IMG/VR virus record: IMGVR_UViG_3300045988_036540
Source of the DNA: a virus
DNA: 5,939 nt
Direction: 5' to 3' (one strand)
Shown one piece after another: positions 2,051 to 5,939 of the stretch. A model generated the notes under the pieces. That model ran no database searches and was not told the DNA's origin. It was given only the letters and a program-made list of their open reading frames with translations. Position 1 is the stretch's first letter; every line of letters starts with the position of its first letter. Position numbers and translations under genes: made by a program.

Positions 2051-2090
2051 AATAAAATAGCCCGGGGTTTTGCCCCGGGCTTCCCCCTTT
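2051..2090 (-). promoter_or_regulatory. VP1-VP2 intergenic GC hairpin with T-rich tail (terminator/attenuator-like), plus an upstream purine-rich SD-like element
   Basis: Minus strand reads TAA G AAAGGGGGAA GCCCGGGG CAAAA CCCCGGGC TATTTTATT ATG. The 8-bp all-GC-flanked stem pairs 2060-2067 with 2073-2080 around a 5-nt loop, followed by a T-rich run ending at the VP2 ATG. AAAGGGGGAA is at 2081-2090. Confidence 0.65.
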
Positions 2091-4590: not shown

Positions 4591-4710
4591 TCACAGTCGG
4601 ATACCTCCTCGCATTGCCCCGCTTCCCAGGTTAATTGCCTTGGTCTTGCGTGCGGTCTTGTTGTAGATTTTTGCGTCTTTGGATTTGCGGACTCTACTCC
4701 TCTTTCCCAT
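4591..4710 (-). CDS. Small highly basic DNA-binding / packaging protein, 39 aa (functional analogue of phiX174 J; gokushovirus ORF8 type)
   Basis: The sequence MGKRSRVRKSKDAKIYNKTARKTKAINLGSGAMRGGIRL is Arg/Lys-rich, with the C-terminal MRGGIRL ending I recognise from small basic microvirus proteins. ATG is at 4708-4710. The longer ORF-track form starts at a TTG (4782) inside the upstream gene. It overlaps the upstream 75-aa ORF by 17 nt. Confidence 0.75.
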   Translation of the reverse strand: MGKRSRVRKSKDAKIYNKTARKTKAINLGSGAMRGGIRL

Positions 4711-4921
4711 GGTTGATTTCCCTTCTGAGGATTTCGACCTCAATGTCGTTTGCTGCCGCCTTCTTGCGAAATGCAAGGTCAACGTAATATCTTGCGTCTT
4801 CGATTGTTGCGGCCTTTCTGAGCATACTGTATGCGGCGTCGATTGCCTTGTAGGTTTTCGTCAACTCCCGCATAAGGTTCTCGTCGGTCTGGTCTCTTAC
4901 ATTCCACGGTTTGTTCTCCAT
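4694..4921 (-). CDS. Hypothetical protein, 75 aa, predicted helical; no family recognised
   Basis: ATG 4919-4921 is preceded by GGAGG (minus strand CCGGAGGCTTAAC ATG). It is co-directional and tightly packed with its neighbours. The sequence is MENKPWNVRDQTDENLMRELTKTYKAIDAAYSMLRKAATIEDARYYVDLAFRKKAAANDIEVEILRREINHGKEE. Confidence 0.7.
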   Translation of the reverse strand: MENKPWNVRDQTDENLMRELTKTYKAIDAAYSMLRKAATIEDARYYVDLAFRKKAAANDIEVEILRREINHGKEE

Positions 4922-4922
4922 G

Positions 4923-5006
4923 TTAAGCCTCCGGCTCGTTTCCTGTTACCGCATGGTAGATTTTGTCCAACATGGTAAGGATTTTTTGGATGTTTTCAAA
5001 CAGCAT
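4923..5006 (-). CDS. Possible 27-aa ORF (MLFENIQKILTMLDKIYHAVTGNEPEA), below the ORF-track cutoff
   Basis: Hand translation. The stop TAA (4923-4925) sits 1 nt before the ATG of the 75-aa ORF. A good SD (GAGGTG, 5035-5040) lies 28 nt upstream of the ATG, which is too far. However, it is 7 nt from an in-frame CTG (5025-5027) that would give a 34-aa product. The start is ambiguous. Confidence 0.25.
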   Translation of the reverse strand: MLFENIQKILTMLDKIYHAVTGNEPEA

Positions 5007-5113
5007 TTTGATTTCTTGGTAAGACAGAGCAGTTCACCTCTTTCGTAAAGTTATTTTTGTAAAAATGGAATTTGTTAAATGCACTTCTGCGCTGTTTGAC
5101 TATTTATGTTATA

Positions 5114-5296
5114 TCACTTTGGAGAGATTTTGTCAATTTCTCGTTTGTCAAGTTCTTTTTTGATTTCTTCGTAGACGTATCTGCAATGGTATCCTTCGAC
5201 TTTGCATGGGCAGCTCTCACAATCCCCGTTACAATGTTCGTATCTGTGCTCCATGTAGAGTAGCGTTTTGTCGCTTGCGAACCATAAGCTATTCAT
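5114..5296 (-). CDS. Hypothetical Cys/His-rich small protein, 60 aa; putative metal (Zn)-binding
   Basis: ATG 5294-5296 starts 1 nt after the upstream stop and is preceded by AAAGGAAAA. The core HRYEHCNGDCESCPCKVEGYHC holds 5 Cys and 3 His within 22 residues and is followed by a charged helical tail (YEEIKKELDKREIDK). Confidence 0.65.
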   Translation of the reverse strand: MNSLWFASDKTLLYMEHRYEHCNGDCESCPCKVEGYHCRYVYEEIKKELDKREIDKISPK

Positions 5297-5297
5297 G

Positions 5298-5483
5298 TTA
5301 GTTTTCCTTTACTGTGAAACAGCTTGCTACGCGTTTAACCTGGTATAGCGAGTAGATTCCAGGATTTTCCTCTGCGTATCTTTTCAGCTTTTGTTTTGCG
5401 ACTTTTGGTTCTTCTACAAACCAATCGACAATGTGTGTTGTCCCGTCGTTGTCGAATCTTTGGATTTCGTAGCTGTGTAACAT
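5298..5483 (-). CDS. Hypothetical protein, 61 aa; first gene downstream of the promoter
   Basis: Start placed at ATG 5481-5483 (MLHSYEIQRFDNDGTTHIVDWF...), preceded by AAAGGAACGGTGAAAACC. The ORF-track start at 5540 is the TTG of the promoter -35 hexamer, so the first 19 codons of that call are promoter and leader sequence. Confidence 0.65.
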   Translation of the reverse strand: MLHSYEIQRFDNDGTTHIVDWFVEEPKVAKQKLKRYAEENPGIYSLYQVKRVASCFTVKEN

Positions 5484-5579: not shown

Positions 5580-5619
5580 GTCATGCGTTAGGCGCGGTGC
5601 GCCGTACGAAGAGCATGAC
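5580..5619. other. Nested GC-rich hairpin in the noncoding region, ~40 nt upstream of the promoter -35
   Basis: Outer 7-bp stem pairs 5580-5586 (gtcatgc) with 5613-5619 (gcatgac). Inner 5-bp stem pairs 5591-5595 (ggcgc) with 5599-5603 (gcgcc) around a 3-nt loop. It sits in a GC-rich island (5581-5650) within otherwise AT-rich noncoding DNA. Confidence 0.6.
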
Positions 5620-5658
5620 GTGACTTTCCGGCCAGCTGCCGAACTGCCTCTAATTGAG

Positions 5659-5835
5659 TTTTCAACACTTTCAACACTTTCAACAGGTTTTCCACAAAAA
5701 GTTGCACAAATGGTTTTGTGCATATTGCTACACTTTCAACAATTCAACAAGTTTTCCACAAAATTATCAACATTAAAATTAGTCACAAAATATCGTTTCA
5801 ATGATAGAAATTCATAGTATTCAACATTTCAACAC
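5659..5835. repeat. Iteron array: eight same-orientation TCAACA cores plus two copies of GTTTTCCACAAAA (DnaA-box-like core TTTTCCACA)
   Basis: TCAACA occurs at 5662, 5671, 5680, 5736, 5744, 5767, 5821 and 5829. The first three form 9-bp tandem units (TTTCAACAC, TTTCAACAC, TTTCAACAG; 5660-5686). GTTTTCCACAAAA occurs at 5687-5699 and 5751-5763. Confidence 0.9.
5703..5722. other. Perfect 8-bp hairpin (tgcacaaa / tttgtgca, 4-nt loop) centred between the two halves of the iteron array
   Basis: 5703-5710 tgcacaaa pairs with 5715-5722 tttgtgca; the loop is 5711-5714 (tggt). It is flanked by the direct repeats CACTTTCAACA..GTTTTCCACAAAA at 5675-5699 and 5731-5763. Confidence 0.75.
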
Positions 5836-5840
5836 TCCCT

Positions 5841-5939
5841 ACTACTACGACTACAACAAGTAAATAATAATATAATAAAAATCGTGCGTGCATGTGCGCG
5901 ATTACGTGCGCGTGCGCGCGCTGATAAACCTAAAAAAAT
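5841..5939. repeat. Terminal redundancy, copy 2 (identical to 1-99)
   Basis: Same comparison as copy 1. Confidence 0.95.

Follow-up and report, generated by a model that had tools for sequence, protein, structure and literature searches.

A variable gene slot associated with a putative promoter, next to a conserved pair of small genes, in a genome related to gut gokushoviruses

What are the small genes that precede the conserved core of a microvirus genome, and do they form a single functional group? The question is raised by IMG/VR record IMGVR_UViG_3300045988_036540, the whole stretch of which (5,939 nucleotides [nt], referred to here as the window) is a circular genome with a unit of 5,840 nt and a terminal redundancy of 99 nt. 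All genes of the window are located on the minus strand. A noncoding stretch of about 0.5 kb separates the stop codon of the replication initiator gene VP4 from four small open reading frames (ORFs) which follow each other in the direction of transcription: orf61 (5483-5298; 61 amino acids [aa]), orf60 (5296-5114; 60 aa), orf27 (5006-4923; 27 aa) and orf75 (4921-4694; 75 aa). An initial annotation had given the same coordinates and junctions, with 1-nt gaps at 5297 and 4922 and a 17-nt overlap between the 3' end of orf75 and the basic-peptide gene starting at 4710; it had also estimated that the small genes and the noncoding region comprise about 1.3 kb. All of this was confirmed. Its proposal that the four ORFs form one promoter-proximal cassette did not hold, as orf27 and orf75 were universal behind a promoter-like element of their own while orf61 and orf60 occurred sporadically. 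It is likely that the interval is divided into unit A (5540-5114), which consists of the putative promoter P1, orf61 and orf60, and unit B (5136-4694), which consists of the putative promoter P2, a leader, orf27 and orf75.

Comparisons were made with 44 close relatives (8 from GenBank, 36 from IMG/VR; 45 genomes with the window) and with a distant set of six gokushoviruses whose orf75 homolog is 33-53% identical, giving 50 relatives in total; promoters and terminators were compared in 43 genomes. The frames of the small ORFs were intact across dozens of related genomes at 45-95% aa identity, and diversity at third codon positions peaked in the annotated frames. Ratios of nonsynonymous to synonymous divergence (dN/dS; Nei-Gojobori) were 0.21 for orf75, 0.12 for orf27, 0.26 for orf61 and 0.25 for the orf60 family (n = 11), compared to 0.05 for the basic peptide and a range of 0.05-0.09 for the basic peptide and VP5. 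In a control, both alternative frames of orf75 yielded dN/dS values of 1.2-1.5 and contained stop codons in 21 of 21 sequences. The four small minus-strand ORFs are genuine genes. Their shortness (27-75 aa), the AT-richness of the DNA and their missing annotation in almost all GenBank relatives might point to chance open frames within noncoding or regulatory DNA. Such an explanation is extremely improbable and is already refuted by the selection tests, given the intact frames, dN/dS values of 0.12-0.26, the third-position excess, the failing alternative frames and the confident AlphaFold2 (AF2) models. Neither lost frames nor an absence of purifying selection, which the initial annotation had listed as signs of non-coding sequence, was encountered.

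The four genes differ in their distribution. In tblastn searches of the 44 close relatives, orf75 and the basic peptide were each detected in all 44 and orf27 in 42, whereas orf61-like sequences were present in about nine and orf60-like sequences in ten. The order orf27-like, orf75-like, basic peptide, VP5 was recovered by hidden Markov model (HMM) searches in all six distant gokushoviruses. Because of their near-universal presence and fixed gene order, orf27 and orf75 are regarded as lineage-specific core genes. Between the stop codon of VP4 and the start codon of VP5 the genomes contain 943-1,645 nt (1,509 nt in the window), and this length variation is confined to a slot bounded by the conserved noncoding region on one side and orf27 on the other. 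The ORFs in this slot were clustered into at least five unrelated families of 55-65 aa: orf60-like, orf61-like, C8, C9 and C16. As many ORFs had been fused via read-through chimeras into one cluster (C0) in a first single-linkage clustering, only the clean clusters C6-C9 and C16 were used. Nine slot configurations were distinguished among the 45 genomes: no cargo (14 genomes), orf60 (8), C8 (6), C9 (6), orf61 (5), orf61 plus orf60 (3) and three singletons. In four distant relatives (KX513868, MG945233, MG945430 and MG945219) the same slot is filled by an annotated M15 peptidase, alongside which KX513868 encodes an orf61 homolog. The view of the interval as a non-core cassette thus stands for orf61 and orf60, which are dispensable, exchanged and located behind a good promoter match, but not for orf27 and orf75.

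Genomes with VP4 genes sharing 99.1% (L035 and L002) or 98.4% (L037 and L005) nucleotide identity differ in the content of the slot, and the same cargo is found on backbones sharing only about 79% identity. Synonymous divergence (pS) of orf61 was 0.05 between L011 and L022, compared to 0.27 for VP4 of the same pair, and that of orf60 between L017 and L020 was 0.00 (VP4, 0.31). Conversely, the orf61 genes of the window and L011 differed with a pS of 0.77 (VP4, 0.25). The correlation between pS of orf61 and of VP4 was 0.18, and synonymous divergence of the cargo is uncoupled from that of the backbone. Unit A is dispensable, mobile and promoter-associated.

Some further features of the slot were observed. 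Its left edge is marked by a GC-rich hairpin (GGCGC-ACC-GCGCC on the gene strand; 5586-5605 in plus-strand numbering) which is kept in all aligned relatives with or without cargo. It marks the left recombination boundary of the slot and may represent an origin or another cis element. In the empty-slot genome L012, and via a shared flank also in L010 and L013, the 3' end of C8 is retained about 430-520 nt past the VP4 stop codon, just upstream of the hairpin terminator and P2; this remnant looks like the deletion scar of a former P1-C8 unit. Genomes harboring only C9 (L006, L007, L008, L025, L033 and L041) have neither a recognisable P2 nor an ORF resembling tm32, a small membrane-peptide gene described below, which suggests that the operon head is arranged differently in this subgroup.

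P1 (5540-5512; TTGACT, 17-nt spacer, TACAAT and an extended -10 TG) is located 29 nt upstream of the ATG of orf61 and is the best sigma70-like match of the genome (10/12). In most relatives an equivalent site lies about 430-470 nt past the stop codon of VP4. P1 was present in 29 of 31 cargo-bearing and absent from 11 of 12 cargo-less genomes (Fisher p = 1.5e-7), and in alignments the nearest relatives with an empty slot, L012 and L016, lack P1 and cargo together. P1 had been considered the only strong promoter in the initial annotation. However, a second sigma70-like element, P2 (5136-5108), sits between orf60 and orf27 and overlaps the stop codon of orf60. It consists of TTGACA (5136-5131), a 17-nt spacer and TATAAC (5113-5108) after a TG; its downstream part in the window reads TGATATAAC, ending at 5108. 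The promoter scan missed P2 because it demands a T at position 6 of the -10 hexamer. P2 is common to all aligned groups, cargo-bearing or not, and in 36 of 43 genomes it is located at a fixed distance of 104-110 nt from the probable CTG start codon of orf27 (see below). Variants of P2 with a -10 hexamer ending in C are always accompanied by the extended -10 TG, and TATACT variants occur without it. An extended -10 TG can compensate for a weaker -10 hexamer, and the pattern of P2 variants fits such a compensation. The leader between P2 and orf27 (5028-5107) contains a Shine-Dalgarno sequence (GAGGTG, 5040-5035), and its nucleotide sequence is conserved among relatives both with and without cargo. 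In 23 of 43 genomes the cargo is followed by a hairpin (free energy of -6 to -12 kcal/mol) and a T-run, with the -35 hexamer of P2 inside the loop. In the window, neither a hairpin nor a T-run was detected after orf60.

In the scheme proposed here, unit A would be a horizontally exchanged accessory transcription unit at a recombination hot spot flanked by the noncoding region, which bears the origin, and by the conserved P2. Unit B would be the head of a conserved operon comprising orf27*-orf75-basic peptide-(tm32)-VP5-VP3-VP1, where orf27* denotes an extended form of orf27.

Transcription of the interval also bears on the one-cassette model of the initial annotation, according to which all four ORFs would serve early in host takeover, anti-defence or superinfection exclusion and, being first in the transcript, would be made earliest and most abundantly. 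In favor of this model, all four are orphan genes (ORFans) for which no microvirus homolog is known, the best sigma70-like site of the genome is located upstream of them, and co-transcription is possible in the window, where no terminator separates them. That same arrangement speaks against the predicted expression order: transcripts from P1 in the window should read into the P2 operon, and therefore transcription of orf27 and orf75 should equal or exceed that of the cargo, with genes behind P2 receiving P1 read-through in addition to P2 initiations. Further, no early/late programme is known for microviruses such as phiX174. The one-cassette model is already contradicted by the universal presence, fixed order and separate P2-like element of orf27 and orf75 and by the sporadic occurrence of orf61 and orf60, and it is distinctly unlikely.

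Several observations weigh against the two-unit scheme or limit it. P1 and P2 are putative promoters inferred from matches to the consensus, and promoter-like sites in the genome as a whole were not above chance (5 found, 6.9 expected). The -10 hexamer of P2 in the window lacks the canonical final T. As there is no terminator after orf60, unit A of the window is not a fully insulated moron, a type of phage element considered below. The GC content of the cargo (0.40) is lower than that of the core (0.50), but composition is a weak sign of foreign origin because the adjoining noncoding DNA is equally AT-rich (0.38). VP1 and orf75 likewise show partial uncoupling from VP4; since the whole clade recombines, cargo exchange is not slot-specific. 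Genomes counted as having an empty slot may hold ORFs below the length cut-off or of undefined families. With respect to unit B, initiation at CTG is rare in bacteria. Finally, no significant sequence or fold match points to a function for any of the four proteins.

Morons are independent promoter-gene-terminator units located between conserved genes of lambdoid and other double-stranded DNA (dsDNA) phages (the concept of Hendrix and Juhala). Like a moron, unit A is flanked by conserved blocks, is missing from closely related genomes, moves horizontally and has its own promoter-like element, as judged by consensus and association with the cargo; a terminator-like hairpin is present in 23 of 43 relatives. 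Its anatomy can thus be described as moron-like: a predicted promoter, one or more genes and usually a terminator between conserved blocks. Unlike a moron, the copy of unit A in the window has no terminator. The GC content of the cargo differs from that of the core genes but is similar to that of neighbouring noncoding DNA. The cargo genes are ORFans found in gokushoviruses only, and expression from a prophage would not be expected in a 5.8-kb single-stranded DNA (ssDNA) microvirus without evidence of lysogeny.

Horizontal acquisition of M15 peptidases was reported for gut Microviridae (Roux et al. 2012, PMC3394797). These genes are comparable to unit A in that they are accessory gains of gut gokushoviruses and occupy the same slot in relatives from Gokushovirinae B. 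In contrast to orf61 and orf60, which have neither homologs outside microviruses nor a recognisable activity, they have clear homologs in cells and dsDNA phages and a plausible role in lysis. Small accessory peptides of microviruses were noted by Kirchberger et al. (2022; PMC9239249), who described gene uptake as limited to peptidases and methyltransferases; a promoter-equipped slot, the orf27/orf75 pair or the CTG start was not found described in the text of that study. Small microvirus genes such as K, C, E and A* of phiX174, ORF6/7 of Chp2 and N and W-Z of phiMH2K are likewise tightly packed or overlapping, and some are non-essential. VP5 and the basic peptide of the window match their counterparts in phiMH2K and Chp2. 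Unlike the small genes of these phages, the small ORFs of the window are not overprinted on larger genes.

Known before were morons and accessory hot spots in dsDNA phages and, in microviruses, acquired peptidases and unexplained small peptides. No paper on morons in Microviridae, and no description of a promoter-equipped exchange slot, an orf27/orf75 core pair or a CTG start in gokushoviruses, was found in open-access text. Few ssDNA phages of the mammalian gut reach the abundance of Gokushovirinae B, which probably infect the keystone commensal Faecalibacterium. Annotations of these genomes usually list five or six genes only; as orf27* and orf75 are conserved in the lineage and almost never annotated, this core gene set is incomplete. 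That a 5.8-kb ssDNA phage keeps a slot, apparently equipped with a promoter, in which ORFans and a peptidase are swapped between near-identical backbones qualifies the published view that such phages take up almost no genes. The slot also provides a short list of candidate proteins by which microviruses may handle host defences or lysis, and its present value is that of a map for experiments.

To assign functions, all four ORFs and the extended orf27 were searched against Pfam, PHROGs (including host-takeover families), NCBIfam and PADLOC, with nothing significant found. The cargo families C8, C9 and C16 are also ORFans with nothing significant in family libraries. Profile searches of PDB sequences with orf75, orf60 and orf61 gave no match. 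HMMs of orf75, orf27, orf60 and orf61 did not score better than E > 0.4 against six-frame ORFs of phiX174, Chp2, phiMH2K and SpV4; control HMMs of VP5 and the basic peptide matched classical microvirus genomes. The impression gained in the initial annotation that the small ORFs are unlike known Microviridae proteins was thereby borne out.

The product of orf61, a gene present in nine of 45 genomes, is predicted to be a soluble beta-beta-alpha-beta mini-protein and accessory ORFan. Its AF2 model has a predicted local distance difference test score (pLDDT) of 83 overall and about 90 for residues 1-50, and the family contains an invariant NPGIYSLYQ motif. In a database of 5.8 billion proteins, 13 homolog clusters were identified, on contigs of microvirus size or shorter. 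The sole significant fold match in Foldseek was an uncharacterised Microviridae homolog (1e-6), and no match in the PDB was significant. Similarities in fold to AcrIC9 (E = 1.3) and to T4 Dmd (E = 0.2) did not reach significance and were rejected. Homologs of orf60 were recovered in only four clusters by a word-indexed search and in 11 genomes by tblastn or clustering. Four cysteines (C22, C26, C29 and C38; spacing C-x3-C-x2-C-x8-C) do not vary among 10-11 sequences with identities as low as 40%, and C31 is nearly invariant. Matches in Pfam, PHROGs or PDB sequences were not obtained, and Pfam and PDB-sequence searches (best E = 0.14, to an unrelated seed protein) showed no homology to a defined zinc-finger or Fe-S family. 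The cysteine spacing is CxxC-like, as in small Cys4 metal-binding proteins of the zinc-ribbon or knuckle type, and orf60 probably encodes a small soluble metal-binding protein.

Since unit A is non-essential, has its own putative promoter, turns over fast and is exchanged between backbones, a host-directed role is suggested. Its products would act on the host (evasion of defence, manipulation of the host or exclusion of rival phages) and would not take part in building the virion. The functional proposals made here for units A and B are tentative and should be read as possible rather than probable. Defence evasion is a reasonable guess for unit A because CRISPR spacers assigned to Faecalibacterium match close relatives of the phage, and an anti-defence role of this unit would be plausible. 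T7 gene 0.3/Ocr and anti-CRISPR (Acr) loci are promoter-proximal anti-defence genes of dsDNA phages. The genes of unit A resemble them in being small, fast-evolving and dispensable and in lying behind a strong promoter match at a variable locus, and the spacers carried by Faecalibacterium are directed against the lineage to which the phage of the window belongs. Unlike anti-CRISPR loci, unit A has no significant similarity to Acr or anti-restriction proteins and no neighbouring helix-turn-helix gene of the Aca type. PHROGs, PADLOC and Foldseek produced no significant anti-defence match, with no dedicated Acr library being searched. In its most specific form, the proposal states that the P1 slot is an anti-defence or host-interaction island, in which orf61, orf60, C8, C9 and C16, swapped as modules with a promoter of their own, would encode novel proteins inhibiting CRISPR-Cas, restriction or other immunity of Faecalibacterium, and that orf27* (with its CTG start) and orf75 form an essential core pair of Gokushovirinae B that had escaped recognition. 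This combined form is rather unlikely; if true, it would provide the first anti-defence gene set and the first new core genes for gut gokushoviruses.

Because the same slot can hold a peptidase, a lysis-related role of the cargo rivals the host-directed one. Orf61, orf60, C8, C9 and C16 would then be lysis or lysis-modulating stand-ins for the M15 peptidase, a proposed microvirus endolysin (PMC3394797) which in the four distant relatives occupies the same site immediately ahead of the orf27/orf75 homologs; few lysis genes of gokushoviruses are known. However, none of the cargo proteins contains a transmembrane segment, a signal peptide or an enzyme-like motif. The co-occurrence of the peptidase with an orf61 homolog in KX513868 argues against mutual replacement, and the 14 cargo-free genomes must lyse their host as well. 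For the four small proteins of the window, no transmembrane segment was predicted (19-residue Kyte-Doolittle mean of at most 0.45) and no lysis PHROG was significant. A lysis-accessory slot is hence quite improbable, and the host-directed role of unit A is preferred.

Within unit B, the start codon of orf27 had to be revised. In every close relative the conserved peptide begins about nine codons upstream of the ATG used in the window (5006), right after an in-frame stop codon, and many relatives have no ATG before the stretch AMLDKIYH. A CTG codon (5027-5025 in the window) located two codons past the stop is invariant in 38 of 38 distinct sequences, all of which have a Shine-Dalgarno sequence (GAGGTG or AGGAGG) 7-8 nt before it. 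Distant homologs begin with M-A-L-I-S-I-K, with an ordinary ATG at the aligned position. Diversity at the three codon positions of the extension (0.25/0.04/0.24) is coding-like with relaxed first positions. Instead of the 27 aa originally assigned, the gene thus probably encodes 34 aa (orf27*; 5027-4926, extended ORF 4923-5027) initiated at CTG; such a start, conserved in the clade, would be an unusual case of non-canonical initiation. Orf27* would form a strongly amphipathic helix (hydrophobic moment of 0.47, reached by 0.1% of shuffled sequences).

In a large protein database, homologs of orf75 fall into 289 clusters at 90% identity, and the contigs encoding them measure about 6 kb or less in essentially all cases. 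When 1.84 billion representatives were searched exhaustively with a profile, only 56 relatives were recovered, nearly all of them stand-alone proteins of about 75 aa; the few longer relatives were rejected as real fusions since they are frameshift fusions, such as P0163 running into VP5. The gene is present in 27 GenBank gokushoviruses, mostly without annotation. AF2 predicts a two-helix hairpin (pLDDT 94; helices 13-35 and 40-74), with conserved motifs before helix 1 (W-N-V-R-D-Q-T), at the turn (IEDAK) and in helix 2 (E-L-x-R-R). Foldseek searches of the PDB revealed generic two-helix hairpins only (best E = 0.2, encapsulated ferritin EncB). A ferroxidase-like ExxH site was discarded, as family members have R or N in place of H71, and hits to DUF2508 (E = 0.005) and KwaB (E = 0.007) fell under curated cut-offs and were judged to be helical-bias matches. 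A 42-codon arginine-rich ORF in an alternative frame inside orf75 (4779-4907, minus strand) is open in most relatives. With a dN/dS above 1 it shows no protein-level selection; it was rejected as a gene and is probably a by-product of the constraint on orf75.

No relative of orf75 was detected in 185,579 bacterial and archaeal genomes. A scan of bacterial genomes with VP1 uncovered only two distant relatives, both in metagenome-assembled genomes (MAGs) of Clostridia (45-47% identity) and both without orf27 and orf75. One of them (L055; JAFQUU010000009.1, a 42.8-kb contig of a goat-colon Clostridia MAG) includes a gokushovirus-like region with VP1 (47%), VP4 (33%), VP5 and a basic peptide, lacks orf27 and orf75, and may be an integrated relative. 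One orf75 homolog (P0004) is located on a 5,856-nt contig labelled in NCBI as a Parasutterella excrementihominis MAG. This label is probably a binning artefact because close relatives have CRISPR-based assignments to Faecalibacterium. In the IMG/VR genomes L030 and L040, VP1 and VP4 are only 43-50% identical to those of the window, yet identities amount to 69-71% for orf75 and 76-82% for orf27, and to 84% for VP5 of L030; this pattern implies that gokushovirus backbones of deep divergence have exchanged the small-gene block.

Orf27* and orf75, whose translation is coupled to that of the J-like basic peptide, would be small helical partners in replication, packaging or assembly together with VP8 and VP5. 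As an alternative, the pair might constitute the lysis or exit system of the lineage or its regulator. In its favor, no other universal gene of the clade lacks an assigned role, genomes of the smallest size (e.g. L024, 5,331 nt) have neither cargo nor tm32, the predicted helix of orf27* is strongly amphipathic, and the pair directly follows the peptidase in distant relatives. Against this stand the absence of a transmembrane segment and of any lysis family match, the near-neutral, soluble and helical character of both proteins, and the fact that classical gokushoviruses lyse their hosts without them. A lysis function of the pair is very unlikely, and a role in replication, packaging or assembly is favored.

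The basic 39-aa peptide encoded after orf75 (VP8, a J-like DNA-binding protein; 4710-4591; phrog_10695, 4e-8) is 90-97% identical at the aa level in nearly all relatives, and its HMM finds the J-like ORF of phiMH2K. It is followed by tm32 (4594-4496), the GTG start of which overlaps the stop codon of the basic-peptide gene. This 32-aa peptide has a single hydrophobic transmembrane helix (19-residue Kyte-Doolittle mean of 2.08). Similar ORFs of 32-38 aa are present at the same place in about 29 of 45 genomes and missing in others, and tm32 is a candidate for a small lysis, holin-like or K-like membrane peptide. Further downstream on the minus strand are VP5/ORF5 (4485-4249; PF20577, 5e-17), the VP3 scaffold gene (PF09675, 5e-20) between VP5 and VP1, VP1 (3795-2092), the gene of the VP2 pilot protein (phrog_8742, 9e-99) between VP1 and VP4, and VP4 (1170-151; phrog_942, 6e-112).

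The nearest GenBank records are the gut gokushoviruses KT264788, KT264789, KT264790, MG945657, PV067914, MG945381, MG945138 and MG945780 with 80-84% nucleotide identity. KT264788, KT264789, MG945657 and KX513868 were classified as 'Family3_GokushovirinaeB' and assigned to the host Faecalibacterium with the CRISPR-spacer tool CrisprOpenDB (Kirchberger et al., PMC9239249). The virus of the window is a gokushovirus of Gokushovirinae B with Faecalibacterium as probable host. With respect to genome size, the initial annotation had regarded the genome as larger than typical and as expanded beyond the microvirus core. This is true only in comparison to classical gokushovirus isolates (4.4-4.6 kb). 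The relatives measure 5.2-6.2 kb, and Gokushovirinae B are known for 'comparatively large, uniform genomes' (PMC9239249), so that a size of 5,840 nt is ordinary for this lineage of the mammalian gut.

Three additional sequence elements were observed outside the small-gene interval. The noncoding DNA contains repeats of TTTCAACAC / TTCAACA at 5651-5755 and 5820-5834, with three tandem 9-nt copies and dispersed ones; these form the 'iteron' region of the initial annotation. Just downstream of the VP4 stop codon, an alternating purine-pyrimidine tract (CGTGCGTGCATGTGCGCG...CGTGCGCGTGCGCGCGC) is present at 44-80 and 5883-5919 within otherwise AT-rich noncoding DNA. Between the stop codon of VP1 and the start codon of VP2, a strong terminator-like hairpin (2059-2081, minus strand) with a stem of 9 bp, 8 of them G-C, is followed by a T-rich tail and resembles the attenuating terminators between late genes of phiX174.

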